NCBI GenBank assembly: GCA_043228905.1
Contig: JBHGNT010000009.1
Span: 8,928,001-8,992,000 of the forward strand
DNA from: Azolla caroliniana
Lineage: Eukaryota > Plantae > Polypodiophyta
Direction: 5' to 3'
DNA: 64,000 bases
Within the stretch, counting starts at the first letter, position 1, and each line of letters starts with the position of its first letter. Below the pieces are notes generated by a model, which was not told where the DNA came from, searched no databases, and was given only the letters and a program-made list of their open reading frames with translations. This document shows, piece after piece, positions 8,463 through 36,781 of the stretch. The position numbers and the translations under genes were made by a program.

Positions 8463-9179
8463 TGTCGTGAAGGATTCCGGCCATAGAGAGAAACAGAGCC
8501 AAGAACACGCGAGTGGGTGTGTGCACCAATGCATATGAATAAAGTATTATGTACAAACATAATGTAAATAACATAGGACTAGTAAGTACTAGGTAGTAGG
8601 ATTTAATGAGGTACTTTAAAGTCCCACACGCATAGAAAGAAATCAAGGGGGGGGGGGGAGGGGATCTCTGACACCGATCACGATGTAAATGTCTCCCCTT
8701 GTGCTATAAAAGGGGAGGCTTGAGCCTACTTTACGGGGGGGACGAAAAAGGAGAACGAAGTGCTATCGGTTTGAGTGCCAAGCTCTCTCTCTCTCTCTCT
8801 CTCTGTTTGTGTTTTGTGTTGATTCAGGAAGAAGGTGAAGCCTCTGCTCGTGCAGGTAGCCCGTGAGCTCCCGACCAGAGGTTCATCATTCTGTGTGCAT
8901 TTATGGTGGATGTAATTCAAAGTCCCACAGTTGGCTGAGTCCGGTTGTAATCCTTTCGATCAATTATTTAATCTATTCGTCTTCATTTTGTTCGATTGCT
9001 CTATGTGTGTTGAGAACGCATCCCCATCCCATGACTGTTTGTCCCTCGCGTTTGGCCTGAGCCTTGTGTTGTGTGCTCACAGTTGTCATCTGGACGGGCT
9101 TCCTACTCCCTCTAGCTCCTTCGTTCGAGACCCCCGTGGTCCTACCCGTTTCAACATGTACCCGTAGAAAACCGCGACA
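8463..9179 (+). repeat. 5' LTR of gypsy J
   Basis: Inverted termini TGTCG/CGACA, TATAAAA near 8706, followed by PBS; 3' end resembles the LTRs of element I. Confidence 0.8.
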
Positions 9180-9183
9180 TCTT

Positions 9184-9201
9184 TGGTGAACCCGACGTGA
9201 A
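9184..9201 (+). promoter_or_regulatory. Primer-binding site complementary to tRNA-Trp 3' end
   Basis: TGGTGAACCCGACGTGAA is the reverse complement of the plant cytosolic tRNA-Trp 3' end as I recall it; identical copies at 30654-30671 and 40935-40952 (minus). Confidence 0.8.
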
Positions 9202-9664
9202 AGGGGCAGTAGGGGAGTCTGAAAATGAGGGGAAGTGAACTCGTTGAAGCGATGGTGGTGGTTGTCGACCGCTTGGTTAACGCTTGAGAGAGGACTAGTG
9301 GCCTCGATAGGGCCGTGGAAACAGTAGTCGGCATGGCATGGCAGGTTGATTCAACGGAAAGGACGTCAAAAACTACCTGGAGGCTTTCAAGGCTGAGACA
9401 TTGATGAGAGATGTTCTGGATGATAGACGGTTGTATGCGTTCCGATGGGTAGTTACGCCGAACATCCACGCAGAATTGCTCGAGATGCAGGCTACCTACC
9501 GAACTTGACAAGAGTTTGAGGAGCGGCTCCTCGAAAGATACAGTTTTGATAACTCGCTCCGCTTATTGAAGAAGGAACTAATGGAGTGGGTGGAGAGCCA
9601 TGGGAAGGGGAGGAACACATCGGTGCTCCTCCAAGAGTTCGAAAGACGATTCGCGTGGCTCTCA

Positions 9665-12600
9665 TGTTGGGAGACAGGTCCCTCCGGATGGGAAGGGAGA
9701 AGAACAGTGCCGACGAACAAACTCGGCTGAGGCCGACAGGCCGATGCCGAACCGGTATGAACCGGATGGGGAGTACCCGACTGCGGAGAACCGGATGTTG
9801 TAGGCCCGGTATGAACTGAATGGGGAGTACCCGACTACAGAGAGCCGGATGGGAGCCCATCGAAGCTACATTTGTAAATAGCCGAAAAGTCATATTAGTA
9901 TAAATATGACTTAGGGTAATCTTTTATGAGTGCGGTCGTTTTTTTGTTGTTGTTATTCTTCCTTGTTGGTGCAAGAAGAAGAGAGAGCGCGTAACTGTAC
10001 AGAGAGAGAGAGAGAGAGACGAGGTCGTTGCTTCTGTTGTAACCGCCGCCTGTGGCGAAGATCTGAGATCACTGAGGTTGTTGCCTCAGTGAACTCACTG
10101 TTGTATATTCCTACATAGTGACAGTTTGCAGCCTGTGGGCTGCCGTGGTTTTTCCCCTATTTTGGGGTTTTCCACGTAAACCTCCTGTGTACCCTTTCTC
10201 CCCTCTGTGTCGCGTTTCATTACTTGTTTTTCTGTGTATGAAAAGAATCTCGGTTGTGGCCGAGCGTCGGATATAAGGAACATCGAGTTCTCGTCAAGTG
10301 GTATCAGAGCGAAATCGACACAGAAAATGGACGAATCGTTTGGCGGCATGTTCAAGCTCACCGGCTCCAACTATTCAGTGTGGAAGTCGAAGATGAGGGA
10401 CATGCTCGTGGTTAAAGACCTCTGGCTGCCGGTTTAGTTCGGAGACAAGAGACCGGACAAAATCGACGCCGCGATATGGGAGGTGATGCACATGAAGACA
10501 ACGGCGTACATATGGTGCTTCATCGACATGAGCCTGTACAACAACTTCAATGAAGAGAGCAAGGCTCATGAGCTCTGGGAGAAGATCGGCATAATGTTCC
10601 AGAACAAAAATGCTGTCAATCAGGTGTCGGTATTCCGGAAGCTAGTAAGACTCCGGTACCAAGATGGCTCCAGCATGGCGGAGCATATGAATGCCTTCCA
10701 GGGGCTGATCCACCAGGCAACGTCATTGGAAGTACCTCTTGCTGATGAGGTCCTAGCGCTACTCCTGCTCGGTTCCCTCCCGGATAGCTGGGAGACGTTG
10801 GTTGTCACTTTGGGCAACGCCGGGCCGGAAGGAAAACGGTTATCCCTAGCAAGAGTAAAGTTGAGCTTGCTAGATGAGGAGGCTCGTCGGAAAGACAAAG
10901 ATACGAGCTCCGACTCTAAAGCGCTCCTTACTGAATCGGAACGCGGAAGACATAGAAACCGTAGTCCCCAGAAGCGGGAGAAGTCGGGGACACGGTCAAA
11001 GTCAAGGGGGAGGCCTACTTGTTTCTATTGCGGCAAGCCGGGACACTTCCAAAAGAACTGTCGGCATTTCCGAAAAGACAAGGAAACCGACGGTACCGAT
11101 TCGAAACAAACCCCGAACCGGAACGGTACAGACCGGAACGGTAAAGACCGGAGGGGGCCGGACCGGAAGGGAACGACGACAATTGCGGCAAGTGAAGAGG
11201 AGTTGATGCTCATCACCGAGGAGAGTGAGATAAACCATGCCGGCGACGAGATGACCTGGGTGGTAGACTCCGGAGCGTCGTTCCACCTTACCCCGGACCG
11301 GAAATGCTTCTCATCCTACTCAGCCGGTGATCATGGTTGTGTCCGGATGGGGAATGAAGGAACATGCCGAATTGTCGGCATAGGAGACGTGTGGCTGACA
11401 ACACCAACCGGATGCAAGTTGCTGTTGAAGGATGTCCGACACGTTCCGGAAGTTCGTCTGAACTTGATATCAGCTGGTCGGCTAGATGATGAAGGCTACA
11501 CGGGTAGCATCCGGAACGGTGTCATGAAGTTCAGCAAAGGGAGCCTGATTGTGGCTCGGGCCCGGAAGGTAAACACACTGTACCTGATGAATGCCCGGTT
11601 ATGTCCGGAAGAAGTGAACGTGGCTTCCGACACTGCCGGTGAGCTGTGGCACAAGAGGCTATGTCACATGAGTGAGAAGGGGATGAAGAGGCTTGGAGAC
11701 GACAACCTCATTCCAGTGAAGAACGTGCACTTAGAGAAGTGCACTGATTGTCTGGCCGGTAAGCAGAACCGGACCCCCTTCCGACCAAGGCCACCGATGA
11801 GACGTAATGCACTACTGGAGTTGGTGCATACGGATGTTTGTCAAGTAGACACGAAGTCACATGCCGGAGCGCAATACTTCATGACGTTCATAGATGACCA
11901 CAGCCGGAAGCTGTGGGCCACACCGCTGAAGACGAAGGATCAGGTGTTATCAGTCTTCAAAGAGCTCCATGCGAGGGTGGAAAGAGAAACCGGCCGGAAG
12001 CTGAAGGCGGTTCCTAGCAGATAACGGAGGAGAGTACCGGGGGCAGTTCGAGGAGTACTGCCGCTCGAAGGGAATCCGGCTCGAATTTACCGTGCCGAAG
12101 ACGCCGGAACTAAACGGACTGGCCGAGAGGATGAACCGGACCATAATGGAGAGGGTCCGGAGTATGCTAGCGCATGCAAAACTACCCAAGAAGTTTTGGG
12201 CTGAGGCACTGTTGACGGCGACATATGTGATAAACAGATCACCCTCAGTACCCTTGGACGGAGACACGCCACAGAGAGTATGGACCGGTAAGGAAGTGTT
12301 CTACCGGCATCTGAGGGTGTTCGGGTGTCTCGCGTACGTGCATGTAGCAAAGGACCGGAGAGGAAAGTTAGATCCAAAGACCCGACCATGCATATTCCTC
12401 GGTTACGGTGACGATGAGTTCGGCTACCGAGTGTGGGACCCGGTCGACAAGAAGGTATTCCGGAGTCGAGATATTATCTTCATGGAGGACAAGACGCTCG
12501 CCGACTGGGAGTCGGAGAAGAAGGTACTGAACTCCGAGTCGACCGGTAAGGATAGACTCTACAATGAGCAGACCCAACCGGCAAGAGACCGGTTAGCACT

Positions 12601-15033
12601 CGAGGAACCAGCCGGTTACGGTGAGGATACCGAACCAGCAGAAGAAGAAGTAGAGGAAGCTGAGACCGGAACCGGTCAAAACCCCGAATCGGATTCGGAT
12701 GAAGAGCAAATGGAGGAACCGGTTACCGAAGCCCGAAGACGTAGATATCCTCTCAGAGAGAGAAGGGCGCCCCGGAGATTTCTGGATGCAGAGCATGTCC
12801 TGCTGACCGATGAGGGGGAGCCGGAAAGCTTCGAAGAAGCGAAGGAAGACACCCACAGCCGAAAATGGTTAAGTGCCATGCGGGATGAGATGGATTCCCT
12901 GCATGAGAACCATACGTACGAATTGGTGGAGCTGCCGAAAGGAAAGCGGGAACTCCGAAACAAGTGGGTGTTCAAGTTGAAACCGGGAGATGCCGGCAAC
13001 CCCCCGAGATACAAAGCTAGGATCGTGGTGAAGGGGTTCCAGCAGAAGAAGGGCGTGGACTTCGACGAAATATTCGCCCCGGTAGTAAAGATGACCTCCA
13101 TCCGGACGGTGCTGAGTATAGCAGCAAGCATGGATCTCGAGGTAGAGCAGCTGGACGTGAAGACGACATTCCTCCACGGAGACCTCGAAGAGGAAATCTA
13201 CATGCAGCAACCGGAAGGATTTGTGGAGAAAGGGAAGGAGCACCTGGTATGCCGGTTGAAGAAGAGCCTGTACGGACTGAAGCAGGCTCCCCGGCAATGG
13301 TACCGGAAGTTCGACTCCTTCATGACCGATCAAGGGTACCATAAGACACAGGCCGATCACTGCGTGTTCGTGAAGAAGTTTGAAGGAGGGGACTTCCTGA
13401 TACTTCTCCTGTACGTGGATGACATGTTGATCGTCGGACGAGACCAAGGCAAAATACGGATGCTGAAGAAGGCTCTCAACCGGACCTTCTCAATGAAAGA
13501 CTTGGGTCCGGCAAGACAGATGTTGGGGATGCACATCATTCGGGACCGGTCAGTGAAGCAATTATGGCTGTCACAGGAGAAGTATGTGACAAAGGTGCTT
13601 CACCGGTTCAACATGTCAGATGCAAAACCGGTCGGATCGACACTTCCGGCAAACTGCAAGTTGTCCGGCAAGCGAAGCCCGAAGACAAAAGGAGAGAAGG
13701 CAGATATGATGAAGATTCCATATGCCTCTGCCGTCGGGAGCTTGATGTACGCAATGGTTTGTACCCGACCGGACATTTGATACGCAGTCGGAGTGGTGAG
13801 CCGGTTCATGAGTAATCCCGGCAAGGAGCATTGGAACGCAGTCAAATGGATACTCCGGTATTTGAAGGGCACTTCAAATATGTGTCTCCGATTCGGCTCC
13901 GGGAAACCTCAACTGGACGGTTTCACCGATTCGGACATGTCGGCTGATGTGGATACCAGCCGGTCTACATCCGGGTATGTGATGACATATGCAGGGGGAG
14001 CTGTTTTGTGGCAGTCGAGGCTGTAGAAGACGGTTGCACTGTCAACCATAGAGGCGGAGTACATGGCGGCTGTAGAAGCCGGCAAGGAAATATTATGGAT
14101 GAAGGACTTCATCGGAGAGCTCGGTATCCGGCAAGAGGAATACCGACTCTACTGCGACAGTCAAAGTGCCATCCACCTTGCTAAGAATGCGGTCTACCAT
14201 TCCAGGACGAAGCATATCCAGCGGAGGTATCACTGGATCCGGGAAAGGGTAGATGACCAGGAGTTCACACTGACGAAGATCCACACGGCCGAGAACGGGT
14301 CAGATATGCTGACCAAAGTGCTGACACCCGACAAGCTGGACGCATGCCGGAAGAGGATCGGGCTGGAAAGACACCCCATGCCGGAGTGAAGGGGGAGTTT
14401 GTTGGGAGACAGGTCCCTCCGGATGGGAAGGGAGAAGAACAGTGCCGACGAACAAACTCGGCTGAGGCCGACAGGCCGATGCCGAACCGGTATGAACCGG
14501 ATGGGGAGTACCCGACTGCGGAGAACCGGATGGTGTAGGCCCGGTATGAACCGAATGGGGAGTACCCGACTACAGAGAGCCGGATGGGAGCCCATCGAAG
14601 CTACATTTGTAAATAGCTGAAAAGTCGTATTAGTATAAATATGACTTAGGGCAATATTTTATGAGTGCGGTCATTTTTTTGTTGTTGTTATTCTTCCTTG
14701 TTGGTGCAAGAAGAAGAGAGAGCGCGTAACTGTACAGAGAGAGAGAGAGAGAGAGACGAGGTCGTTGCCTCTGTTGTAACCGCCGCCTGTGGCGAAGATC
14801 TGAGATCACTGAGGTCGTTGCCTCAGTGAACTCACTGTTGTATATTCCTACATAGTGACAGTTTGCAGCCTGTGGGCTGCCGTGGTTTTTCCCCTATTTT
14901 GGGGTTTTCCACGTAAACCTCCTGTGTACCCTTTCTCCCCTCTGTGTCGCGTTTCATTACTTGTTTTTCTGTGTATGAAAAGAATCTCGGTTGTGGCCGA
15001 GCGTCGGATATAAGGAACGTCGAGTTCTTGTCA
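9665..15033 (+). mobile_element. Full-length Ty1/copia element A (Tork/Tnt1-like)
   Basis: LTRs 9665-10296 and 14400-15033 (about 11 substitutions plus one GA indel by eye); TSD TCTCA; iMet PBS TGGTATCAGAGC 10299-10310; PPT GAAGGGGGAG 14388-14397. Confidence 0.96.
10327..14389 (+). pseudogene. Copia A gag-pol polyprotein, disrupted
   Basis: Start MDESFGG; zinc knuckle CFYCGKPGHFQKNC; PR WVVDSGAS; INT; RT YVDD; RH. Stops at 10435, 13778 and 14024; frameshift near 12015. Confidence 0.93.
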
Positions 15034-16348
15034 TCTCAGAGCTGGACCAGACCGTGCTCGACATGAGCAATGTCCTATTGTTTATCAAGTTGGTCGATCC
15101 ACTCAACCGAGCAAAGGTGTGTCTCCTATTGGAGACAGATGAAGGGCTCACGGCTGATTGGGCTGTGGTAAAGAGGGTATGTAGCCATTTTGACAAATGG
15201 TGAGAATGGAACGATGTGGCGTCATCGACGACCGGCCCGGGTGCTGGGAAGGAGCCAAAGGGACGTATTCCAGCACGAAAAAAAGAGACACGAAGGTGGC
15301 TTGAGTCGGGCATTGTTCCAACTGACGTGGTCAAGGGCCCATCCGGGGGCACAACTCTAGAGGAGTTGACAAAGATGGTGCGCGATCTCCAGATTGCGCA
15401 AGCTCGGAGAGATGGCGGGGGACAATCGTGTGACCGGAGGCCTCCAGTAGACCAACAATGCATGTGGTGCGATGTCGTCAACCACATCTGAAGAGAGTGC
15501 ACCGATTTTGCAAAAGCACTCAAGAACAATGTAGGGTACCTCTGGAACGGATGGGTACATGTGTGCGATACATGAAGGCCCCTCGAAGTGAATACCAGAC
15601 GAGGTGACATGAAGAGGATAATGGAGGAAGCCGTGGCCTGGAATGCTGGGGCCATCCACTACTCAGTGTTGGCAGGGATCCAAGTAGGCGAAGAGAAGGG
15701 CGACCCATCTGGAAGCAATACCGGATTTGTTGGGAATCAACGCTTCGATTCACCTTCACCACTCGGCCACAACCGAGTAAGCGCGAATCAATGGAGCAGA
15801 AAATAGGAACCACAAAGAGAAACAAAACGCGAACATACAGGGATTAACGTGGAAAACCCTAGACGGGAAAAACCACGGGAGTACAGGACTCCAAACCAAC
15901 ACTATACAGAGAAGTATACAATGGCGAGCTGCAAGGCGACGACCTTGAGCTCGCTGTCCTCGCCACAGGAGGCGGAAATACAAAGAGGCGTCGTCCTCTT
16001 CCTCTCTCACGCTCTATCTCTCTCTCTCTCTCACGGTTGCTCCCTCTTCACTCCTCTTGAGTGGAAAAACAGAAAAATGATTAGCAACAACAAAGCTGTT
16101 TGCCCTAAGTCATATTTATACATATATGACTTTGGGGCTATTTACAACTATAGCCTCAGGGGCCCATAGCGAACATATTCACGGATATGTCCCTGCATCC
16201 GGATCGCTCTCCGGGTACATTCGTCATCCGGCACCGAAGCCGGGGTCTTCAACATCCGGATCCGAAACCGAAACCGGGCTCGTCGGCTTTCATCTCCGAC
16301 ATCCGACCATCCCATCCGAAGGGATCATAATCCCAACAAACTCCCCCT

Positions 16349-20424: not shown

Positions 20425-22062
20425 TTTCTGCAGCAGTTCGCTCTGATACCAGTTTGTTGGGAATCAACGCTTCGATTCACCTTCACCACTCGGCCACAAC
20501 CGAGTAAGCGCGAATCAATGGAGCAGAAAATAGGAACCACAAAGAGAAACAAAACGCGAACACACAGGGATTAACGTGGAAAACCCTAGACGGGAAAAAC
20601 CACGGGAGTACAGGACTCCAAACCAACACTATACAGAGAAGTATACAATGGCGAGCTGCAAGGCGACGACCTTGAGCTCGCTGTCCTCGCCACAGGAGGC
20701 GGAAATACAAAGAGGCGTCGTCCTCTTCCTCTCTCACGCTCTATCTCTCTCTCTCTCTCACGGTTGCTCCCTCTTCACTCCTCTTGAGTGGAAAAACAGA
20801 AAAATGATTAGCAACAACAAAGCTGTTTGCCCTAAGTCATATTTATACATATATGACTTTGGGGCTATTTACAACTATAGCCTCAGGGGCCCATAGCGAA
20901 CATATTCACGGATATGTCCCTGCATCCGGATCGCTCTCCGGGTACATTCGTCATCCGGCACCGAAGCCGGGGTCTTCAACATCCGGATCCGAAACCGAAA
21001 CCGGGCTCGTCGGCTTTCATCTCCGACATCCGACCATCCCATCCGAAGGGATCATAATCCCAACATTTTGGCCGCTAGTACTGGAAGGCCTCTCGGGGAT
21101 GAGGTTACCAAAGGAAGAGGTGGACCAAGTGGAGAGGCGGATCCAAGAGTGCTCTGGATGGAACGATCCGGTGGAAGAGAAAACCGGTTTGCGGAAGCCA
21201 CGTGCCAAAACTACGAGGTCCTGGTAGAAGACTAGCAGGCCAGAAAATCCAATGGAGTCGAGCCTTCGAGCCATTATGAGACCCAGAGCAGTCCGAAGGG
21301 AAATGACGGAGGTTCGACCGGCTTGTAGGAGAGGGCGAAATTACCGAGCTTCCGGTTGAGCTCGGAGATAGAGAGAGCGATAGACTTGCGGAAGGTCTTG
21401 GAGGAACAAATCCTCGACATCAAGGTGGAACATTCATTAAGGGAGGTGCTAGGGATCGCAAAGAGGGAATTCCACGATTCTATTGTGGACCTGGTAAAGA
21501 GGAAGCGGCTCTCAACAGAGCCAGAGCCGGAGAAGTTGGTCGAAGTAAAGGCGGCCCACATCGAAGAGGTGGCGATGGAAGAGGAGTTCCCAGAGAACCA
21601 CTACATGAGCCCACACTGGGCCAGAGCGATGACGGAAACCACTGTCTGAATTGGGGATGTCAAGCAGCCAGTAGTGGCATTGATCGATCACGGATCGGAA
21701 ATCAATTTGATGTTGATGGGCTTCTACAAGAAGGGTACATGGCCGATCAACATGAAGCATGGGTGGAAGATATGCGTGGTGACCCACGTTACTGAAGAGC
21801 TTCATGGTGCGTGCCCGAATGTCCAAGTTAGGGTCGGGGATGTTGAGATCAACCAACACTTTTTCGTGCAGGAGACATCCTCGCATCCGTTGATACTCGG
21901 CGAACCTTACATTACGGTGGCTCGTATGAAGACCAAAGTGTTGGACAATGGTTCGGCGTACGCAAGGGTGAAGAGCTAGGACGGTAAGCACTCCATCCAA
22001 TTCCTGATGGTGAGGCTGAATCATGAACGAAACCGAGATTTTCTCAGCGGTGAGGGCCAAGG

Positions 22063-22132
22063 GGATTTTTAGAGAGGACTATCAAGGCGTGGGGCCGCGA
22101 TAGTCTGAACAACCGGAAGAATCCCCACACCT
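22063..22132 (+). promoter_or_regulatory. Putative -1 programmed ribosomal frameshift signal in gypsy J
   Basis: G GAT TTT directly before the gag-PR stop TAG; 6-nt spacer; stem 1 22076-22083/22099-22106; stem 2 22085-22094/22123-22132; the -1 frame joins pol across insertion D. Confidence 0.65.
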
Positions 22133-22464
22133 GTACCATAGGAAGGAGATTTTGGTCCTCCGTGTTGAGAATCAAACTCAACTTCCTATAGAAATAGGTT
22201 TCACACTAGCTCATGGACATGCCAGACTAGTTTTGTAAATAGTAGAAAGGGCCCTTGCCCTAGTTTAGTTGGTATTTAAACCAACCTTTTGTAACTTTGT
22301 TATTGTTGGAAGCAATACATAGTTTTCTCATCTTAAGACTCTCTCTCTCTCTCTCTCTCTGTCTATTTCTCATAAATGCTCATACACACACAGACACACA
22401 GAGTCCTACCGCTGTATACAATCACTCTCCTTTCTTTACATGGAATCAAAGCATGTGGTTTTCT

Positions 22465-25400
22465 TGTTGAGAGACAAGCTCAACATCGGCCGGATCGGCT
22501 GAAGAAGCCGAGGACCGGATCGGTTGGGACCGATCGGTTAGGCCGAGTGTGTAAACCGGGAGTTCGTTAGGAAGTGCGTAAACCGGGAGGTCGTTAGGAA
22601 AGATATTCCGTGAGGAATATATTTGGGAGTTAGTGTAGGAGCTCTTGATGAGCATTGAAGTACTGTCAGTACTTCGGTCAGTCCTTCTAGGACTTGTATA
22701 AAAGTGTTCACTGACCACGTCTTATGTACAGACTGAGTATTATTGTTGAACATATTTTTTTGTGTCTTCTCTCTCACTCTCTCTGTCTCTCCTGCGTATA
22801 CCGTGTAAGCACAAGCTCTCCATTGAACTTGAGTTTCCTTCCTTTTGTTCGGTCTTCATACCTGTTTCCGCACGCTGCTTTCTACATGGTATCAGAGCGC
22901 GAGGGTTGAGAACCTCTCTGAAGCCGACAGAGCTCGCTTCCAACAGAGAAGCTCGACATAACCAACTACGCGTCTTGGTCCTACAAGATGCACCAGTACC
23001 TGCTCGGGCACGGCTACTGGAGTTATGTCGAAGGAGCTAATGACGCGGCACCCGAATCGACACACTGAGACTTCCCGTCGTGGGAGCAATCGGCGAGCAG
23101 GGTATTGTACTGCTTCGAATAGTGTGTGGGCGAACAACTATTGAGCTATGTTCGGGATGCAAAGACGCCGAAGGGTGCGTGGGAAAATCTGAAGAAGATT
23201 TTCGCCGCGAGCACCACAGCCAGGAAGCTTTAGCTCCGACAGGAGTTGAGCAACCTACGACAACGCGACTTGTCGGTGGCGGACTATACCTCAAAGATCA
23301 AGGATATCTGCGACTCCCTCGCCTCCATAGAGGTGAACATGGAGGAGAGCGAGACGGTCCAGATCTGTCTCAGAGGTTTGGCGTTGAGCGTTCCGAACGA
23401 CTGTGTGTACTTGGGAGAATACGCCGTCCTTTTTCGACTTACAGTCGATGCTCCTGGTAGAGGAGAACCACGTGGGTGCGTCTACAAGCACGCACACCGA
23501 CAGCAGAATGTTGTACACGGAGGGAGATAGGCCCCGTGGATGTGGAGGACGAGGCGAGTTGGCACGCAATGGAGGCGGCCGACGAGATCAAGAAAGAAGG
23601 CACCGAAGTGATGCCGACAGCAACTCCGGACCCTCCGGAAACAGGGGGAGTCGAAGCGATGAGAACCAGCAAGGGAAGTCCATCGCGGAGTGCTGGTACT
23701 GTGGCAAGAAAGGCCACAAGGAAAGTGAGTGCTGGAAGAAGCGCGCCGATTTGGAGAGAACTGGTTCCGGGAACGGCTCCAGACATACCGACAAGGGAAA
23801 TCGGCAGCGATCGCACTACGCCGAAGACTCCGGGAGAGCCGGAGAAGGGACTACCTTCGTGACGAGACACGAAGCAAACTCAATGAAGCAGACCACCCCA
23901 AGATCGGACGAGGTGTGGTACGTAGACTCCGGCGCGTCAAACCACATGACGAGCCATAAGGAGTGGTTCTTGTACCTTGAAAAACCGATACAACCTGGAG
24001 TAGTCGCAATGGGGAGACGACATTCCGCATCCGATCGCGAATGTCGGAGAAGTTCCCCTTAGCCATGTCGGGCAGAAAGGGAAACTCATGAACGTGCTAC
24101 ATGTTCCGACAATCACGAAAAACTTGGTCTCGGTCGGACAGATCGTCGACCAAGGGATGGAGGTTTGGTTTACACACCTCGGGTGCTTCATTGAAGAAGA
24201 AGGCCGTGTGATTGTGCAAGGGCGCAGAGACGGGAGGATGTTCATCCTCGATTCCACTGACGGCGGCCGCACCGCAATGTTCGCAAAGGGACAAAAAGCC
24301 GAGTCGGACGTCGACTTGTGGCACAAGCGGATAGGCCACGTCAACTACTAGCGGCTTCAAGATCTGCAATCAAAACAGGTAGTGTTCGGATTGCCCAAAT
24401 TTAGTGGCCAAAAGGCACAAGTTTGTGAAGCCTGCCAGCTCGGGAAGCAACACCGACTTCCTTTCTCAAACGAGCGAAACAGGAGCCGGAACAAGCTCGA
24501 CCTTATACACTCCGATGTGTGGGGGCCGGCACAAAACGTTAGCCTTGGCGGGAGCCGATATTTTGTCTCCTTCATCGACGACCACACGCGGCACATGTGG
24601 ATCTACCTCATTGAGAGGAAGAGCAAAGTCTTCGACTGTTTCCGTGACCTCAAAGGGTGGAAACGGAAACGGGCCGAAAGATCAAGTGCCTGCGGTCGGA
24701 TGACGGGAAAGAGTACTTTCCGGTCAATTCAACGGTTACCTACAACAAATGGGAATTCGGCGCGAATTCAGTTGTAGATACACGCCGGAGCAGAACGGCG
24801 TGGCAGAGAGAAAGAATCGGTCGATTGTGGAAGCGACACGGGCACTGCTGGAGGAGAAGAGCTTGCCCAAGTTCTACTGGGCCGAGGCGGTATACATCCA
24901 AAACCGGATCAGAGACAAAGTGTTGGCGCACGAGCTATATTTCGGAACGAAGCCGAACTTGCGACACTTGAGGGTGTTCGGTAGCATTGCGTATGTGCAT
25001 GTACCGAAGGAGAAAAGGAGGAAGCTGGACGCAAAGGCTGAGAAATGCATCTTGGTCGGTTACTCGGACGAGCAGAAGGGTTATAAGTGCTATAACCCTC
25101 GCACCAAACAAGCGCGTGTCAGCCGCGATGTTGTGTTTGACGAGTCCGCGTCCTGGTACCTGCCCCCGACTACGAACCTCAACTCCAATCCGAGCTCTGA
25201 CGATGAGGTTAGTGAGGCCGAGATGCCTCCGGATGAGCCCGAAATCGAGACCCGCGAAGAGAGTCCGATTTCACTCCGGTTAAGTGGACCGATTGGACGA
25301 CTGAGTCGGTACGACCAGTCCGATGATGAGCCGGCGAGTAGTGGAGACTCGGCCGTGCATTCCCCGCACAGGAAGCCGAGGAGACGGCTTACGCGCAAAG

Positions 25401-28101
25401 AGAAAGGGAAGAAGAAAGTGTCGGATTCCGGCACGGAAAGGAACGAGTCAGACCGACGCGAGTCCGACTCCGAGGGAACCGGTGACAGGTCTTTAAAGGT
25501 GAAGGCCGCGTCGACTGAGAAGGCCTCGACATCGGCTAATGTGAGATTACGCCGATCTACCCGCCAGAAGAATCATGTTTTGCGGTTCGGATACAACGAG
25601 TACATGGCGCATCATTATGCGTACATGACCCGTGTAGCGGAAGTGCGTGAGCTGGAGAGCTACGCAGAAGCAGCGAAGGACGCGAATTGGCGCGCCGCGA
25701 TCGAGGAAGAGATGCACGCATTGGCGGAGAACGAGACCTGGGACCTGGTTGACGCACTGAAGGGTGTGAAGCCGATCGGGTGTAGATGGGTGTACAAAGT
25801 CAAGTACAACACCGATGGCTCGGTCAACCGGTACAAGGCTCGGTTGGTGGCAAAGGGCTACGCGCAGAAACACGGCATCGACTACGATGAGACGTTTGCG
25901 CCGGTCGCGAAAATGACGACTGTCCGTGTTTTGTTCGCAGTAGCTGCGGCGAAGGGGTGGCACTTACATCAGATGGATGTAACGAATGAATTCCTGCAAG
26001 GTGACCTTGAGGAACAGGTGTACATGGTACAGCCCCCCGGATTTCACTCTGGTACGAACTCCTCGGCAGTATGCCGACTGAAGAAGTCCCTTTACGGGCT
26101 GAAGCAAGCCCCGCGTGCTTGGAACGCGAAGATCATGCAACAACTGCGTCGGATGGGCTTCGTCACGTCAAAATCGGACTCTTCCCTGTTCATCCGGAAA
26201 GGTCGACTCGGACCGGTTAGTATTCTACTATATGTTGATGACTTGGTCATCATTGACGCCGACCTAGGTGAGATCGACCGCGTGAAGCTCCAGCTTGCGG
26301 CATCGTTCGAGATGAAGGATCTGGGGGACCTTCATTACTTCCTCAGGATCGAAGTGATCCGTACCCCCGAAGGCATATTGATCAACCAACGTCATTACGT
26401 GCTGGGTATGCTCTTCAAACTCGGGATGACCGACTGTAAGTCTGTCTCGACTCCTCTGGACAGAACCGTCAAGCTTCGTCCCGATACGGGAAAGGTATGC
26501 GACCCGAGGAGGTTCCGACAAATTGTCGGAAGCCTCATATACTTGACCATCACCCAACCCGACCTTAGTTATCCGGTCGGGGTGATCAGTCAGTTCATGG
26601 CGCGACCTACCGAGGAGCACCTTCAGTGTGCGCAACGCGTACTGCGGTACGTAAGTGGCACTAAGGACCGAGGACTGCTATATCGGACCGGTGCAGCTGC
26701 GTAGTTAGTCAGCTACACCGATGCTGATTGGGCTGGCAACGCCGCCGATCGCCGATCCACATCTGGATATGCGTTCTCCCTCGGGAGTGCCGCAATCGCG
26801 TGGAGCAGTAAGAAGCAGCTGACAGTTGCACTGTCGAGCACCGAAGCCGAGTACCGAGGAGCGGCTGTCGCGACATGCGAAGCCATATGGTTGAAGCGGC
26901 TACTTAAGGACCTGCGAGAGGAGGTGTCCGATCCAACGACGATCTACTACGACAACCTCAGCAGCATCCAACTCGCGAAGAACCCCGTCTTCCACGCACG
27001 GACCAAGCACATTGAGGTGCACTACCATTTCGTCCGTGAGCGTGTCCTTTTCGATGAAGTTGAACTTCAGTACGTTTCGACGGATCGGCAGATTGCCGAC
27101 ATCTCCACCAAGCCTCTTGGTCTGGACAAGTTGCGGCAATTCTCAAGTGCGCTCGTTTTGTGTCACCTTGACGTGCCGAACTGGATGGGGAGAACAGTCC
27201 CGAACGACCAAGCAAGGCAGCAGGAAAGGAGCGGACACCGTGACACCGAGTCTGTTGACAAGTTTGACTTCGGATCGGCTGAAGAAGCCGAGGGCGGATC
27301 CGCGGAAAAATCCGGAAGCGGACAGAAGGGGAGCAACCAAAGGAGAGAGCCAAAGCCAACCATGCATGGGGAAGATAACGCCATCGAGGGCGAGAAGACC
27401 GAAGATGAGTTGGAGACAGCCAACTCGGACGAGAGCGAAGACTGATCGGAGGTAGCCCAGTCAGTTCGGATGTTTGATTCAGACACACTGAATCAACCGA
27501 GGCCCAAGCGGAAGAAAAGGCAGTAGAAGAAGCGTCAACACCGCAACAACAGAAGAGCTGATGAGGGCCACATGAGCAGACAAGCCGACCGGAAGGGTCG
27601 AAGCGCGTGGAGTCGAACAGGTCGAGGAGCGCGAGCGAGGCGAGAAGCTAGGAGGAACCGGTGTTGTGAAGATCCCGAAGAGCCTCAAGTTGAGCTTGAG
27701 GGGGAGTGTTGAGAGACAAGCTCAACATCGGCCGGATCGGCTGAAGAAGCCGAGGACCAGATCGGTTGGGACCGATCGGTTAGGCCGAGTGCGTAAACCG
27801 AGAGGTCGTTAGGAAAGATATTCCGTGAGGAATATATTTGGGAGTTAGTGTAGGAGCTCTTGATGAGCATTGAAGTACTGTCAGTACTTCGGTCAGTCCT
27901 TCTAGGACTTGTATAAAAGTGTTCACTAACCACGTCTTATGTACAGACTGAGTATTATTGTTGAACATATTTTTTTGTGTCTTCTCTCTCACTCTCTCTG
28001 TCTCTCCTGTGTATACCGTGTAAGCACAAGCTCTCCTTTGAACCTGAGTTTCCTTCCTTCTGTTCGGTCTTCATACCTGCTTTCGCACGCTGCTTTCTAC
28101 A
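22465..28101 (+). mobile_element. Ty1/copia element E
   Basis: LTRs 22465-22886 and 27707-28101; TSD TTTCT; iMet PBS 22887-22898; PPT GAGGGGGAG 27698-27706. Confidence 0.95.
22945..27445 (+). pseudogene. Copia E gag-pol, frameshifted
   Basis: NYASWSYKMHQYLLGHG; CWYCGKKGHKESEC; WYVDSGASNHM; INT/RT ORF 24749-26704 with YVDD; [18 protein letters not shown]. Confidence 0.88.
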
Positions 28102-29749
28102 TTTCTGATCAAGACTAATCGACTGTGGTGTTCTATATACCGACGATCAACAGAACCGGTTCAGGAAACAGAGAAGAAATCATCATGAATACTCAGATGG
28201 GAAGCACTCTTCAGATGGAGAAGCTTTACAAGACAAACTTCACATCTTGGGAGTACAAGATGTATTAGTACCTTGTCGGACAAGGATACTAGAGCTATAT
28301 TGAAGGAGCTCACGAAACACAGCCCAACCCAACACACTCTGACTATCCTGTTTGGGAGCAAGCTGCAAGCCATGTGTTGTATTGCCTTGCATCATGCATA
28401 CATGATCACATGCTCGGCTATATTTGAGAGACGAAAACGCCGAAAGAAGCGTGGGGCAATCTCAAGAAGATCTTCGTGGCCAATATGGCTGCCCGCAAGC
28501 TCCAACTTAGTCAGGACTTGAATGCCATTCAACAAAGGGACATGTCAATCGGCAGCTACGCCTTGAAGATCAAGGAACTGTGTGATGCCCTCGGGTCGAT
28601 CAATGTTGGCATTGATGACGAGGAAATGGTGCACATATGCCTCAGAGGCTTGGCACCTCGATTCAGCGCAATAAGGTCCGTCGTCCTTGCAAGAGAGAAT
28701 CCTCCCACCTTTTTCAATCTCTAGTCAATGTTGTTGGTCGAGAAAATTACGCCCGACAAAGGAGCAACGCACCAAAGGGTCAGATGCTCTACTCCCAGTC
28801 GAATGATAGAAGAAATTTTGTTCGTGGAAATAGAGGTCAATTCGGACAAGGCCGTCACGGTCAGTAGACCCAAGAGCATAACTCCCACCAAGGGCAAGTG
28901 GACAGAAACAATCCCAGAGAGTTCGGCAGAAGGGGGAATCATCACGCTGGACCAAGCAATCGTGATAACCCAATCAAATGTGGATATTGCGGAAAACTCG
29001 GTCACTATGAAGAGGAGTGGCGAAAGAAGAAGCGAAGTCGGCTTCAACCATCCAACAACTCACGAACTACGCATCGAATTCCGACTACGAAAATTGTTGC
29101 GGGAGGTTTAGGAATTATGCATCAAATTCCGACTACGAAGATCATAGCGGAATGTTCATGATTAGGCACAAAGTGCAGTCAATGGCGACACAAGGTGAAA
29201 CAAGCACCACACCCTTAGAGAATGTATGGTTTGTTGACTCGGGAGCATCCAACCACATGGCGTCTCATGAACATCCCAGATATGTCTAGACAGGCGGTGA
29301 CACGACTCATCCAATACAGCATATCGGGAACGTCTTGTGCGGAAACGACGGGAAACAAACCTACCTCAAGAACGTGCTGCATGTTCCTACCATCATGAAA
29401 AACCTGGTTTCGATTGGCCAGATTGTTGAACAAGGAATGCAAGTATGATTCAACAATGATGGGTGCTTTATCGAAAGAGGTGATCGAGTCGTAGCTCACG
29501 GCCGTTGTGAAGGCCGTATGTTTGTCCTCAAATCGAACGAGGTAAAATCGGCCATGTTTGCAAAGGGCCTCAAAGTCGAAAACGACCTAAACTTGTGGCA
29601 CAAGAGAATTGGCTACATCAACCTCCAGAAGCTTCAGAACGTGCAATCGAAAGGAGTCATAATCGAACTCCCGAACTTTACCACGAAGGAGATTACGGGC
29701 GTATGCGAAGCGTGCCAGCTCGGAAAGCAATGCCGACATCCATTCCTAA

Positions 29750-32700
29750 TGTCATGATGTTTTTGACACATAGTGCGAAACCACCCTCAAAAGAGAGTAA
29801 AGTATTCCAAATAAACTAATATTGCAAAGTCAACTTTTGTAATAAATGATGAAAAGATAGTAAGGTAGAAGTGGTTTTTCAAAAGTAGATAAAAATAGAA
29901 AAAGTAAGAGAAAAAAAAAACACAAGGCGTGGAATTAAGGAGCAAGGTAGAGAAAAAAGCTCATAATTTCCTCATTCGATGTCCAAATTAGACAAGAAAA
30001 TATCCATAAGAAAGCTAACTCAAAGGGCTTTCCAAAAAAAACATGTATGTCTAATTTGGACTTAAAAAAATAAAATAATGATAGAAATAAAGCGCGATTC
30101 ATATAGACAAGCTTTTGTTTAGGAGAAAAATAAAGCAAGCCATAGAAACCCTATAAATAAGAGCTATTCTTAAGAAGAAGGGGGGAGATGGATAGGGATT
30201 TGAAGAAGAAAAGATTTATGTTTCCTCTGTCATACTCTTAACCCTAAAGGGGGATATAAAAAAATCATGTATCAAAATAAGTCCATTATATGGATGATTT
30301 AGTAATAAAAACTTTCTATGTTTCCTCTCTCATACTCTCTTAATTTAAGTTTTGCTTACGTATAGATATAATTTAGTGCTATTCATACTCTCTTACTCTA
30401 AGCGTTCTTACTCATAAGCAAAATTAATCATTATTCGATCTTGCATATTCCCTTACTCGAAGATTTGTCTATGCATTAATATAATTAAGTATTATTCAAT
30501 TTCTCATACTATCTTACTCTTATTTGAGGGAAATATCTCGTCTTAAAACTTAAAGTGCATAAATCCTTAAGCCCTAAATCCTTCTAGTCCAGAACCCCGG
30601 CGGTTCCGCCTCACGATCCGCACTAGCTGGCGGATTTTCACGACATAATAAAGTGGTGAACCCGACGTGAAGACAGGTGGCAAGGAGATGGAGAATCAAC
30701 AAGAGGCGATGAACACGATGATGATGATGTTCAAGCGGATGCTACAAGAACAACGAGCGATGTCGGAGATCAGGACGACAATAAAGTGGCTCGTACAACG
30801 AAATGGACAATTCAACGGAAAAGATGTGGCACACTATCTACGTGACTACAAAGCGGAGATGATGCGATGTGGGATACCAGAAGGATTGCAAGTGATATCC
30901 TTTAGTTGGGTGGCCACGGATGAGGTACAAGAGAGAATCCACAAGATATGACAACAAAACCCGACATGGGGGTCCTTTGAAGAAGCCTTACGAGAGCGAT
31001 ATGACTATGAGAGACCTAAGGGACGAGATCAACGCGAGTTTGACCAATGGGTGGCATCAACGAAGATCCACCAAAGCGTGACACAAGCATTCCTAGAGTT
31101 CAAGCATCATTTTGCTTGACTCTCAGAGCGGGAACAAAGATTGGTGGGGGAGGATAAAGCCCTAATGTTTGTAAGATCGATTGATCGGAACGAAAGGATG
31201 GACATCGGGATCGAACTCGACGATGATGACGGTGCAAATGGTCTTACCGAGGATTGGGTTGAAGTCAAAAGAGTATGCTGAAGACATGATAAGAGGAAGA
31301 TGAGAATCTCATCGGCTACAACATGGCCTATAAGGGATGATCGATTGAGGATGAATGATGTGTCCGAAACGGATAAGACCGATGACTTGAGAGTGGTGAA
31401 CACCACTTCAAGGGTGGAAGAAGGTTTTGGGATACGAGTGTCCGAAACATCTAGAGAGAAAGTGGTAAGCATAATCGATGCTTGCATGATCGAGGGAGAT
31501 AAAGAGTGTGAGGCGGATGTGATTGAGGAGGTAGCCACGAAAGCTGACATCGAGTCGGAGGTGGCTATGAATGAGTCAATGGCGGATGGCCTACGTGAGA
31601 CTTTCCCAACACTAATTCTAGAGATTTCGGCGGTTGTGTTCGAAAGGTAACGTGAGACCGAAGAGACGGAAGGTGGTGGAGAGAAAACAAAGGTCGACGT
31701 CGATGCATACGACAGAGAGATAGCCGAGAAGGTGGCTATGGGTGAAATGACGGGGGATGGAAATACCGAGGATTCCTACCCACTAATTCTAAAGACTTCG
31801 GCGGTTGTGTCCAAGAACCAATGTGAGACCAGAGAGACGGGAGATGGCGGCAAGGAAGGTAAAGTCGGAAGCCGGTTCGGATGGAAGATGATTCGTCCGA
31901 AATCCCAATCTAAACGAAAGTCGAACCAAGCAGAAGTGGATTCGGCCGAAATCCGATCGGTCGAGCCCGACCCGGATAGAAATCGTTCTAGTCGGAATCT
32001 GATCGAACGAGACCGATCCGGACAGAAGTTAATCCAGTCCAACTGGAAGTCAAACCGGTTGAATCCGGTGAACACGAGGAAAAGAAAGCTAACACAGACC
32101 AAAATTGATTGATTGAACCTAACTCGGAAGGGCCGACTCAGTCGACAACGATCAACCGAGTCTGATTCAGCCGAATACAAATCCAATCGGAAGTCAATCC
32201 AACCGAAAGCCGATCAGACAAGACTAATCCAGAAAAAGGTCAAGGTTGAACACAAGAAAGAGGCAAGGAAAAGACACTACCACGGATGACAAGGGCCAAG
32301 CGGATTTGAAGGGTGTTACTAACGATGAGATCTCAACAAAGAAGGAAGGCTCTAACGGGAAGAACGTAAACACTAACGTGAGATTGTATGATGAGAGAGA
32401 ACGAAGAATATGGTGGATCGGATGGCGACAATGGTTCGGGTGGAAAGAATGGATGTGCTCAAAATGGAGAGACAAAGTCGACATAGTGGGACAAACAAAG
32501 GATATTACGGATGAAGAATAATGAGCTCCGACAATTTTGGCACATACCGGAGGATGTGCGGGTTCGGAGGGGGCGAGTGTCGTAGTGTATTTCGTACACT
32601 ATGTGAAAAACGTATAAAATAACCGATTAAATAAATATGAAGAAAAAGAAAGAAATATCAAAATATATATTACATGCATAGGGCAAAATTAGAACCTTGT

Positions 32701-33356
32701 ACCTCCATGTTAATAATTTGAAGTCTTAACCACTACACTAACACATCAAGAGTATAAAGCAAATATCCCACATAGAAAGGTTATTTCATGCATATTTTCT
32801 AGGAAAAAGCTTTAGTTAGAAGAAAAACGCATGATAGAAAAAAGCGACACATGCACGTTTAGCGTGTATGAACACTATAGTCCATAAAAACGCATGAGGT
32901 TAGAAAAAGCATAATCACTTTTAGAAGAAGCATAATAGAGAAAACATATAATCTATAGTTAGAGAAAAAGCATGGATTGCTAAGACTCTCTCATCACTAT
33001 ATAAGGATGGGGAGCACAATGTAATAAGGGTGTGAAATCTTTTGGAAATTGGATATATTTCTAATAACATCAATTAATAAATTATATTCCTGGGATTCAC
33101 GAAATAAACTATACTCGTGGGATTCACGAGGTTTCTATATCTATCTCTTTCAATCCAAATTCATAATCTTATCTTAATATTGATTAATCTAATAAAATAC
33201 ATTATACTCGTGGGATTCATGAGGTTTTTATATCTCTTTCTTATAATCTATTCATATTCATAACTAGATTAGCTTCAAATTCTTCCTCCTCCTAGTCCAA
33301 AACCCCGGCGGTTCCCACCCGACTCACGCAACGATCTGGCGCCGAAAGGCATGACA
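29750..33356 (+). mobile_element. Non-autonomous gag-only gypsy element F (tRNA-Trp PBS) with discordant LTRs
   Basis: LTR-like 29750-30645 and 32578-33356; PBS 30654-30671; PPT ~32567-32577; gag remnant GQFNGKDVAHYLRDYKAEM; no PR/RT/INT seen; 4-bp TSD CTAA/CCGA. Confidence 0.8.
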
Positions 33357-33577
33357 CCGATAGAGCAGAATGTGAGCAAAGGGATCCTGGATGTCATACA
33401 TTCAGATGTATGGGGTCCGGCCTAGACAACCACACTCGGCGGATGCCGATATTACGTCACATTCATCAACGACTTCTCCAGGCACTCCTAGATCTACCCG
33501 ATGAGACAGAAGAGCGAATTGTTTGGACACTTCCACAGGTTCAAAGCTGAAGTCGAAAAAACTATGGGTCGGCACGT

Positions 33578-34327
33578 TATCACGGAAATCCGTGTATGCG
33601 TGTCAGATAGGACGGAACCATGGGGGTCTTCGACTAAGGAGTAAGAGGAGGGAGAGAAGCTTGGGAGTTCAACCGAGAAGGAAGAGAAAGATTAAGATTC
33701 AAGAGAATAAGATCTAAACAAGACAAGATACATTATAGAAAGGACCACACCAATTACAATTGTGGCCGTGTAGGCCGAATGTAAACCCTCTAGATGAAAC
33801 TCTAATCGGATAGGGGAAAAGAAGAAGAAGACGAATGAAACCCCTAAAACGAGATCCTAAAATCCAAATTTCCAAAACCCTAATGGCAACCCAAAGAAAC
33901 CCAAAAAGTGGAATCCCATAAAAAATGGCCCCTCACTCCCTTTTATAGTAGTAAGGGGTGAGGCACATTACATAAAGACGAGGTCAAACCCCCCTTCTTT
34001 AAATGGGGGAATATTTGGCCTTAATCTTAGGAGGAGAGATTGATGGAGCCTTAACTCCCTCTCCTCACACACACACACTATGCCCACTACTCACTACACC
34101 CGTACTTCATGTACTCTCCCTTTAGTCTACATGTGCATGTGCACATAAGTGCACATCACATTTACACTTTATGAATCTTCGTAGTGCACTTTTAACACCT
34201 TACATTTACCCTTCCTTTTTTACATTTGTTTCTTTTACAAATCTTCCAAGTGCATGTGCAATGTTGCACATCCCCATTTTATCCATCCCACTTGGTTTTC
34301 TCACCATGGCCGAAAATCCGCACAACA
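33578..34327 (-). repeat. Solo LTR H
   Basis: 750-bp insertion in the D integrase (GRH|IRCLR); minus-strand termini TGTTGTG...GTGATA; TATA on minus strand; 4-bp TSD ACGT/ACAT. Confidence 0.7.
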
Positions 34328-36436
34328 ACATACGCTGCCTTCGATTAGATGGAGGCAAAGAATATTTCTCGGATGAGTTTACAGCGTATCTCCAAAAGGA
34401 AGGAATTCAACGAGAATTTTCATGCCGTCACACACCTCAGTAAAACGGCGTAGCCGAGCGGAAGAACCGACACATAGTAGAGGTTGCACGGGAAATGATG
34501 AACGAGAAGAACCTGCCGAAATCATACTGGGCAGAAGCGGTGAACACGGTTGTATACCTCATGAACAGGTGCACAATCTCGGCAGTACACGATGCAACCC
34601 CCCAGGAGAAGTTTCTTGGTAAGAAGCCGAACTTATCACATGTTCGTATTTTCGGCTCAATCGCTTATGTGCATATTCTCGATGATACGCGACAAAAGCT
34701 CGGCCCGAAGTCGGAGAAATGTATCCTCGTGGGGTACTCACTCGAACAGAAGGGGTACAAATGTTACAATCCATCTACCCGAAAAGTTCGAACAAGTTGA
34801 GATGTTGTTTTCGACGAGTGCGCATCCTGGTACACACTAGAGCCAACTTCGACTCCGACTCCGACTATGACTCCACTTGACCCGGAATATGCCGAAATAG
34901 AGGCAGAAGCCGAAGATCGACTCACACGAATGTTCGAAGAAAGCCTGATTACGACAAGGCTTAGTGGGCCACAAGAACCTCTGAGTGATCAAAGCACTTC
35001 TCGGCCGAGTTGGAAGCTAGACAAAGGGAAATTTTCCATGCCAGAGTATGAAGACGATCACTTCGACAGCAACGAATCGACTCACTCCCTCGATAGTGAG
35101 TTCGAAGGCCTCAACATCCGGACAAATGGAGCGAAGAAAGCCTTAGTATCCATGAACAAAAAGGTACGCCGATCCACCCGAGAAAAGAACCCCCTCGTAA
35201 GCCATTACGGCTACGACGAGTACATGACGTATCATTACGCCTTTATAATGAAGGTAGCGTCAGTACGGGAGCCGAAAACTCTTTCCGAAGCCGTAAAGGA
35301 TCTGCGATGGGTCGGCATGATAAATGAAGAAATGCAAGACCTATGCAAAAATGAGACATGGGATCTCGTTCCTCACACTCCACACAAGAAAGCGATTGGT
35401 TGCCGATGGATTTACAAAGTGAAACACAATGCCGACGGCTCCATAAATCGCTTCAAAGCACGGCTTGTTGTGAAAGGATATGCACAAATGCACAGAGTTG
35501 ACTACGAAGAGACCTTTGCCCCAATGGCAAAGATGACAACTATGTGAACCGTGGTTGCAATCACAGCAGCAAAAGGATGGAACCTCCATCAAGAACGCCT
35601 TCCTCCAAGGGGAACTGGAGGAGGAAGGGTACATGATCCAACCACTTGGCTTTGAATCACACCATCATTCGAATGCGGTGTGCTGACTCAAGAAGCCCCT
35701 CTATGGCCTCAAACAAGCACCGCGTGCGTGGAATTCGAAGATCATGTAGTATCTTCATCAAATCGTATTTTGGATGTCAAAATCGAATAATTCTCTGTAC
35801 ATCCGAAACGAGTCGGATATCCCAATTGTCATCATCCTATACGTGGATGATTTGGTCATTGGAGGAAAGGATCTCGCCGAGATTAACAAGGTCAAATCAC
35901 GTCTCTCCGGTAGATTCGAAATGAAAGACCTGCACGAGCTCCATTATTTCTTAGGCATCGAAGTAATTAGGACACCAATCATGAAAATGATCTCACAATG
36001 ACACTACATCCTCAACTTACTTTACAAGTTCAGCATGACGGAGTGCAATCCTGTGTCCACCCCGCTTGACCATAATCTCAAACTTGATGTTGATTCCGGA
36101 ACAACCGAGTGCGAGCCAACTCAGTATCGCCAATTGATTAGCAGACTCATTTACCTAACCATTACGTGACTCGACCTCAGCTATTTGGTCGGCCTACTTA
36201 GCCAATTCATGTAGAATCCGTGAAACCTTCATCTTGATTACGCTAAGAGGGTACTTCAATGCGCCAATGGTACGATGGATTATGGCATTAGATACAGGTC
36301 AAATATGATAATTCAACTCGAAGGGTACACAGACGAGGTGTCGCGTTATTACGCGCGTGCGTGTAGAAGGGCAGGACCACGGGGGTCTCGGACGAGAGAG
36401 GAAAGGATGCCAAGAAGCCAAAACACGAGAGAGAGA

Positions 36437-36482
<46 letters not shown>

Positions 36483-36781
36483 ATGTGCGCGCTACACTGA
36501 CTCTTATGCACGAAAACAAAAGGGGTGGAAACACCCGACACTACCAGAGACGCGGATGCGCACAACCAAGCATATATATATATATATATATATTACAATG
36601 GAAGAGATACAACCTCAGCTTCGAGCCGGACCAAGGTAGGTTACAACATCAGTTTGCTGCCAAGCCGCCGATCGGGGAGCTCTCGGGCTTGTCGCGCCGA
36701 GCTGGGTCTTGCACAGGGGACCAACCAGAAGCAAACCCTAAACAGACACAAACTCTCTACCCACGTGACGACGAAGAAGAA

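Follow-up and report, generated by a model that had tools for sequence, protein, structure and literature searches.

How is the pol region of a retroelement translated when it lies out of frame with the gag-protease region preceding it? This question is raised by a stretch of 64,000 nucleotides of the Azolla caroliniana genome (the whole of which is hereafter called the window), in which a frame for Gag and protease (gag-PR) ends with G GAT TTT TAG, while the sequence encoding reverse transcriptase (RT), RNase H (RH) and integrase (IN) follows in the -1 frame. The preliminary description of this DNA proposed -1 ribosomal frameshifting at a slippery heptamer followed by an H-type pseudoknot. 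Sequence comparison leads us to regard the junction of the gag-protease and RT-RNaseH-integrase ORFs in this Phygy-type lineage as, with high probability, a programmed -1 frameshift signal, which is shared lineage-wide and most likely functional in intact relatives.

The letters of the window agree with the proposed end of the gag-PR frame at 22063-22072 and with the proposed stem 1, which starts six nt past the heptamer and comprises 8 bp including one G-U pair (Table 1). The proposed ten-position stem 2, formed by AGGCGTGGGG (22085-22094) and CCCCACACCT (22123-22132), pairs at 9 of 10 positions in the window, but its outer AGG/CCT pairs are not kept in the relatives, and a 10-bp stem 2 was therefore rejected as a feature of the lineage. 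A third hairpin in loop 2 (CCGG...CCGG), seen in the subfamily of the window copy, is absent from distant families. From 22054 onward the -1 frame stays open until a large insertion at 22163, beyond which its phase agrees with the pol piece that contains YETVDRKVRPV; both the CTCCG flanks of the insertion and the pol phase beyond 42620 bear out the continuation into pol that had been claimed. We scanned blindly for H-type pseudoknots 5-9 nt past the heptamer, with scores reached by no more than 3 of 60 shuffles as the criterion, and the top score in the window was equalled by 0 of 60 dinucleotide shuffles. Nested minimum free energy (MFE) folding did not rise above shuffles for the window signal (z of -0.95) or a young copy (-0.71), and thus stability alone provides no evidence; stem 1 is present in the MFE structure of the window. 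No match to Rfam was found over 21950-22200 at E values up to 5, nor did a PDB sequence search yield any. The pattern made of the heptamer, the stop and the 5' arm of stem 1 occurs 3,609 times in the 523-Mb genome versus 2 times for a reversed control.

Table 1. Positions in the window of the pieces of the host element, the putative shift site and the predicted pseudoknot.
Feature	Position	Strand	Basis or remark
Primer binding site, complementary to the tRNA-Trp 3' end	9184..9200	+	matches tRNA-Trp(CCA) genes of the same genome
gag piece 1, interrupted by an insertion at ~9665-15033	9176..9667	+	tblastn with Gag-PR of an intact copy as query
gag piece 2, interrupted by an insertion at ~15718-21065	15033..15689	+	tblastn
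gag C-terminal part and protease, TAG at the end, decayed	21066..22072	+	tblastn and letters
Protease active-site region ALIDHGSEINL, D-H-G replacing D-[ST]-G	21677..21709	+	homologous domain of an intact copy is modelled as a retropepsin fold
Slippery heptamer G GAT TTT	22063..22069	+	letters; form kept in 29/29 families
Stop codon of the gag-PR frame, TAG	22070..22072	+	letters
Predicted pseudoknot stem 1, 5' arm GGACTATC	22076..22083	+	pseudoknot scan, covariation
Predicted stem 2, 5' arm, conserved core GTGGGG	22089..22094	+	pseudoknot scan, arm permutation
Predicted pseudoknot stem 1, 3' arm GATAGTCT	22099..22106	+	pseudoknot scan, covariation
Predicted stem 2, 3' arm, conserved core CCCCAC	22123..22128	+	pseudoknot scan, arm permutation
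Younger nested insertion with TG...CA ends, outside the signal	22163..42615	+	CTCCG flanks at 22158-22162 and 42616-42620
pol	42621..45392	+	tblastn and letters

The host of the signal is a dead Ty3/gypsy copy interrupted by three nested insertions, the largest of which (22163-42615) carries LTR-like repeats at 22161-22371 and 42312-42522 that are 95% alike. The claim of a single stop in the continued frame is true only locally: the last gag-PR piece contains four premature stops between 21161 and 22069 (at 21233, 21326, 21647 and 21977), and the pol side contains five within its first 520 nt and several frame breaks within pol. The subfamily nearest to the window copy is old and indel-ridden, with pol in the -1 frame in 13 of 24 copies and none intact. 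The signal in the window thus survives in good condition as a remnant of the one found in intact relatives and, since one dead copy proves nothing, we build the case on those relatives. Further fragments of the same lineage's gag, one of which carries its own tRNA-Trp primer site, are nested in the large insertion at 30654-31299 (plus strand) and 40369-40850 (minus strand); a covariance model of the signal detected no remaining junction signal in these fragments and no second copy of the signal in the window. Besides, a young minus-strand LTR element with 99.5% identical LTRs lies in the host gag (15718-21065) and has a relative of ~80% likeness at 58901-63790, and a tandem array of about six 159-nt units sharing 92-99% identity occupies 48825-49728.

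What the element is can be read from its relatives. An intact young copy possesses ORFs of 726 and 1172 codons that overlap by 37 nt and together fill the interior. Pfam detected RVT_1, RT_RNaseH, Integrase_H2C2 and rve, in this order, in the second ORF of one intact pol, in which neither a chromodomain nor a second RNase H family was found, and nothing but DUF4100 in the first ORF of an intact relative. The C-terminal 159 residues encoded by the first ORF gave weak aspartyl-protease matches below the cut-off, and the structural model of these residues (mean pLDDT of 79) matched Ddi1 and retroviral proteases with a best E value of 1.8e-6; we therefore place the ORF boundary after protease. Proteases of this type usually carry the motif D-[ST]-G. 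D-H-G-S-E is found in its place across the lineage (window 21677-21709, L061 and homologues), and yet the domain is modelled as a retropepsin. The LTR pairs of full-length relatives have TG...CA ends. Among 11 such relatives, the ends were resolvable in five (those of the window copy itself were not), and all five are flanked by 4-bp NCGN target duplications (ACGG twice and GCGT three times). The tRNA-Trp primer-site motif has 5,561 exact matches in the genome, and the lineage is therefore a major genome component. Three of three scanned loci that share the 3' end of the primer site are tRNA-Trp(CCA) genes of the same genome. The tRNA-Trp-like 3' ends, which have 65 matches overall, include tandem clusters at C8:17.80-17.82 Mb (~1.2-kb spacing), C16:4.99-5.11 Mb and C5:10.11 Mb. 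Proteins of the moss Physcomitrium patens are among the closest named Gag-PR homologues (best 120 of 224 matches). Scans of viral contigs detected no relative. Altogether, the host is a Ty3/gypsy element with Phygy hallmarks, and its link to moss Phygy is supported by the NCGN duplications and the tRNA-Trp primer site. A link to fungal Ylt1-like elements may exist.

The preliminary description had left the -1 offset to be checked in other copies of the family. We examined 199 loci, of which 197 contained protease; in 121, both flanks of the junction were open. Pol occupied the -1 frame in 103 of these 121 intact loci and in the +1/-2 frame in 18, and none had gag-PR and pol in one frame; the offset expected from the window thus prevails in the lineage but is not uniform. 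The five in-frame offsets that we encountered were all in broken copies. By source of the copies, the -1 offset was recovered in 25 of 27 copies with both parts chosen by the RT protein alone (20 of 20 intact ones), in 28 of 30 chosen by a distant Gag-PR and in 60 of 64 from metagenome contigs. As a single assembly series, resembling the same or a near host, accounts for 76 of the 80 metagenome loci, the breadth at the DNA level beyond the host consists of L134, L135, L138 and L144, plus the protein ends described below. Three pairs of loci are duplicates (L191 and L184, L197 and L182, L201 and L183), and L172, scored as +1, is a deletion across the junction. Clustering of protease DNA with a cut-off of 88% yielded 29 families, with L059 representing its family in place of L034, which has a deletion in the pseudoknot. 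Over the 100 codons past the site, the pol frame of these families contains no stop versus 6.9 and 9.3 in the other two frames, its openness being partly a criterion of selection, and the linker so encoded has a median amino-acid identity of 28%.

These frames bear on two explanations that need no frameshifting. The offset might be decay or chance in a dead copy, as the heavy decay of the window copy and its nearest subfamily would allow; yet young copies with 99.7-99.8% identical LTRs share both the offset and the signal, and not one of the 121 intact loci is in frame, so that we assign this reading a negligible probability. We also rejected readthrough of the stop codon: an in-frame pol never occurs among the intact loci, and the lineage employs each of the three stop codons (TAG in 13, TAA in 10 and TGA in 6 of the 29 families).

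The junction itself is conserved. The protease end carries G G[A/G/T]T TT[T/C] in all 29 divergent families (22 GGATTTT, 2 GGATTTC, 2 GGGTTTT, 2 GGTTTTT and 1 GGTTTTC), and the heptamer, whose conservation was also to be checked, is thus kept throughout. It is of the X XXY YYZ type and in phase, with G GAT TTT being a tolerated G_GA variant. The first G of the heptamer is the third base of a codon and was found in 29 of 29 families versus 12.0 expected, across 11 amino acids; only three of the 29 are forced by Met or Trp, and the families, being related to each other, do not represent 29 independent trials. Asp in the heptamer is encoded by GAT in 24 of 24 cases against a background of 0.65. 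The stop follows the heptamer immediately in 21 families, after 3 nt in three and after 15 nt in five. In the last group (L115, L135, L138, L141 and L144), two members of which carry a perfect G GGT TTT, the Gag-PR stop lies at the end of the 5' arm of stem 1, and therefore it cannot act as an A-site pause in these five families.

The same ends are seen in proteins. We considered the best 120 among 224 homologues of Gag-PR and excluded 27 named gene models from the count; among the remaining 93, 65 end with DF, three with GF and three with NF, while 18 end five residues past DF or GF and four otherwise. Matching ends among the named models were found in a moss (Physcomitrium patens; P0124, P0164, P0190 and P0234), a liverwort (Riccia sorocarpa; P0191 and P0205) and a fern (Adiantum nelumboides; P0175 and P0215). 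The remaining 19 named models end differently, which is what a gene finder would be expected to produce by bridging the junction or cutting it short. Several R. sorocarpa models (P0021-P0027 and others) join protease to RT in 1,600-2,000 residues; they probably use predicted introns across the frameshift, and may hide the signal. As for more distant homologues, 70 representatives were hand-picked from 136 listed: 18 end with [DGN]F and 16 within six residues of it, some of these being at 37-45% identity, and 36 end otherwise. One distant relative, P0104 (44% identity over protease), has a single ORF from protease to RT with D-F kept at the junction position, possibly representing a loss or the ancestral state of the frameshift. 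Judging from P0104 and the 36 differing ends, not every member at the edge of the family has this arrangement.

Both predicted stems are kept through base changes, in line with what the preliminary description would have covariation show. Of 30 sequences, 28 have a pseudoknot scoring above shuffles, the exceptions being L105 and L125, which did no better than the controls. Stem 1 aligns without gaps, with 87.7% of the cells paired over 10 pairs and double-sided changes at 8 pairs, and 0 of 500 shuffles matched either its pairing or its covariation score, while partners slid along the alignment paired in 23-44%. Along a tree based on protease DNA only, 226 of the 232 cells of the stem 1 core are paired, with nine coincident changes of both arms, and 478 of 40,320 column pairings reach the observed level in the tree-aware test (p of about 0.012). 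We thus regard the predicted stem 1 as well supported. Stem 2 has a conserved core of about 5-8 bp, which differs in sequence among families (GTGGGG/CCCCAC, GGGACA/TGTCCC, GCAGGGA/TCCTTGC, GCGGGA/TCTCGC and ATGAGGGT/ACCCTCAT), and lies within a narrow distance in 29 of 30 sequences. The own arms of stem 2 score 15.8 versus 13.9 for permuted arms, with 0 of 20,000 permutations (which ignore kinship) being as high. On the other hand, the arms are rich in G-runs and C-runs, the own 3' arm is the best of all in only 7 of 30 sequences, and the test for a single codon phase of the stem 2 register failed (16/12/2). The predicted stem 2 is moderately supported.

We propose that the H-type pseudoknot would confront the ribosome at its entry channel for mRNA when GAU occupies the P site and UUU the A site, and that it would stimulate tandem -1 slippage on G_GAU_UUU. 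The majority of ribosomes would terminate and release Gag-PR, while a minority would slip back one base, read ...D-F-L-E-R-T... and produce Gag-PR-RT-RH-IN. Capsid and protease would consequently be made in excess over the replication enzymes. G_GAU_UUU, which re-pairs poorly in the P site, may be inefficient. The spacer of six nt is within the 5-9 nt usual for frameshift signals (PMC5009743).

Other ways of joining or separating the two ORFs can be envisaged. An intron between protease and RT, spliced in some transcripts, would turn the motif into a signal for splicing or RNA handling, and Ogre elements do splice at the same domain boundary (PMC6317226). The stops in all frames and the conserved splice sites of an Ogre-type spliced junction were not found here: the two ORFs overlap rather than lying apart with stops between them, no stop interrupts the pol frame from the heptamer on while the other frames are closed, and no GT position within 90 nt upstream is common to more than 13 of the 29 families. 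The 110 polyA reads that cover the -1 junction of a young copy, shallowly and on both strands, come from runs not clearly of this organism and are of 80-99% likeness; no joint was seen among them (no read was found at the +1/-2 junction), but they are too sparse and too divergent to be decisive. We consider such an intron very improbable. The same reads, shallow as they are, contain no indel at the site, which is pertinent to the idea that the ORFs are fused in RNA by a base added when transcription or reverse transcription slips on the T run. Although most families have a run of five T and indels of reverse transcriptase at slippery motifs have been reported, the run is only 4-5 T long and interrupted in the TTC families, and the 5' GG is conserved in spite of lying outside it; this route seems extremely remote. 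Lastly, pol might be translated separately through reinitiation, internal entry or a subgenomic RNA, with the pseudoknot serving that process, packaging or dimerisation. Structured RNA may indeed have other uses, and each of the 29 families has an ATG past the stop and ahead of the first conserved pol motif, but it lies anywhere from codon 0 to codon 108 past the stop with no conserved position, and separate translation leaves the fixed heptamer, the fixed spacer and the fixed -1 phase unexplained. We therefore judge it improbable, and retain -1 frameshifting as the preferred reading.

A sister family has pol in the +1/-2 frame. Two of its members, L112 and L124, are metagenome contigs with long intact ORFs, and the L112 type is present in the genome of the window itself (L175-L207), where 24 of 30 loci, representing 27 distinct places, have the +1/-2 offset. 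The motif of this type has 95 exact genome matches versus 0 for the control. Three loci (L205-L207) are young, with 99.8-100% identical LTRs and ORFs of 739 and 1164-1181 codons. The site of the sister family reads CAG GTT TTT (G/T)AC TAG; AGGTTTTTGACTAG is present in 25 of the 27 distinct loci and the TAC variant in one, and the -1 frame hits TGA immediately in 25 of 27. The homologous stem 1 begins 5 nt past the heptamer versus 6 in the -1 families. The pol tree unites the L112 and L124 types in one branch (99/99) among the -1 families, and the protease tree shows them as sisters, both trees being rooted at the midpoint only. The pol tree contains long branches of members with broken frames (L094, L115 and L129), and L032, L114 and L140 were left out of it.

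In the arterivirus PRRSV, the -2/-1 site reads GG_GUU_UUU and is followed immediately by a UGA in the -1 frame (PMC4937337). Shorter spacers favour -2 shifts in wheat germ (PMC4937337), and in U6A reporters with pseudoknots the optimal spacer for -2 is 1-2 nt shorter than that for -1 (PMC3458567). Given the PRRSV-like site and the shorter spacer, we read the sister family as likely using a -2 shift, with a +1 shift into the same frame being the alternative. The argument from the spacer is blurred by several -1 families, in which an added C-G pair can lengthen stem 1 and leave a spacer of 5 nt. We somewhat favor the view that the lineage, which belongs to non-seed plants, shifts frame past protease by means of one conserved pseudoknot, and that a young, still-amplifying branch switched from -1 to -2 through AG GUU UUU and a one-base-shorter spacer while keeping the same pseudoknot. 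If true, a nuclear genome would here harbour a natural -2 frameshift driven by RNA structure and convergent on the arterivirus -2 site, and the switch would fit a spacer rule so far known from engineered reporters. The likeness to the arterivirus nsp2TF site extends to AG GTT TTT, the product ORF in +1/-2 and the -1 TGA behind in most copies. However, the arterivirus site acts without RNA structure and depends on nsp1beta together with PCBP at the C-rich CCCANCUCC located ~10 nt downstream (PMC4937337), whereas the sister family has a covarying predicted pseudoknot 5 nt downstream in place of a C-rich motif; its signal may work like the arterivirus type but is not of that type. With one pseudoknot common to both, the -1 and +1/-2 families constitute a natural pair, in which spacer length and shift-site letters can be tested against the direction of slippage on plant ribosomes.

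As to known lineages, Phygy is listed as specific to P. patens with a length of 7.66-9.97 kb, and its ORF organisation is given as not determined in the classification of Neumann et al. 2019, whose per-element table may hold calls for single elements (PMC6317226). The elements described here are like Phygy in the 4-bp NCGN duplication, the tRNA-Trp primer site, the compact GAG-PROT-RT-RH-INT without chromodomain and the P. patens homologues. They differ from the listing in that homologues also occur in a liverwort and a fern, in that three of five measured elements (7.3-7.9 kb) are slightly shorter, and in that GAG-PROT overlaps RT-RH-INT, a layout listed for no lineage in the table of that classification (PMC6317226). 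Our search of the full-text literature, largely confined to freely available papers, found no frameshift signal reported for Phygy or for gypsy elements of mosses, liverworts or ferns. For annotation, this means that intact elements of the lineage look frameshift-broken.

The proposed signal resembles those known from gag-pol and pro-pol of retroviruses (e.g., HTLV-1 pro-pol) and those of animal and fungal Ty3/gypsy elements in the heptamer, the spacer of 5-9 nt, the H-type pseudoknot and the minority fusion of enzymes. Unlike retroviral frameshifts, Gag and protease are in one ORF, the sole shift comes after protease, the host is a plant, and the heptamer is an imperfect G_GA form with the stop directly behind in 21 of 29 families. 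Umbraviruses and dianthoviruses, such as pea enation mosaic virus RNA2, share G_GAU_UUU itself, the close stop and plant ribosomes, and the viral use of the heptamer cited in the preliminary description agrees with G_GA starting the shift sites of both groups (PMC5009743). Their stem-loop, however, has its partner kilobases away, while both stems here lie within about 65 nt (PMC5009743).

Plant elements are mostly single-ORF or spliced according to Oberlin et al. 2017 (PMC5580714) and a 2025 review (PMC12786077), and a 2016 review, citing a 2003 survey, mentions two plant split-frame types only, both +1 (PMC5009743). Overlapping frames are known in the plant elements Tcn1, Selgy and SIRE, where they precede protease (PMC6317226). 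The arrangement had been claimed as unusual for plants; this does not apply to the split after protease as such, which is known from Ogre and Retand (PMC6317226), but does apply to the route through overlapping frames and a pseudoknot. The lineage shares with Ogre and Retand a plant non-chromovirus gypsy polyprotein cut after protease, but Ogre has been shown to use splicing and Retand has an in-frame stop, whereas the frames overlap here (PMC6317226). A plant lineage numerous enough to give 3,609 matching sites in a 523-Mb genome appears to carry a compact, phylogenetically supported -1 signal, which would be a third way to cut the polyprotein after protease, beside the intron of Ogre and the stop of Retand.
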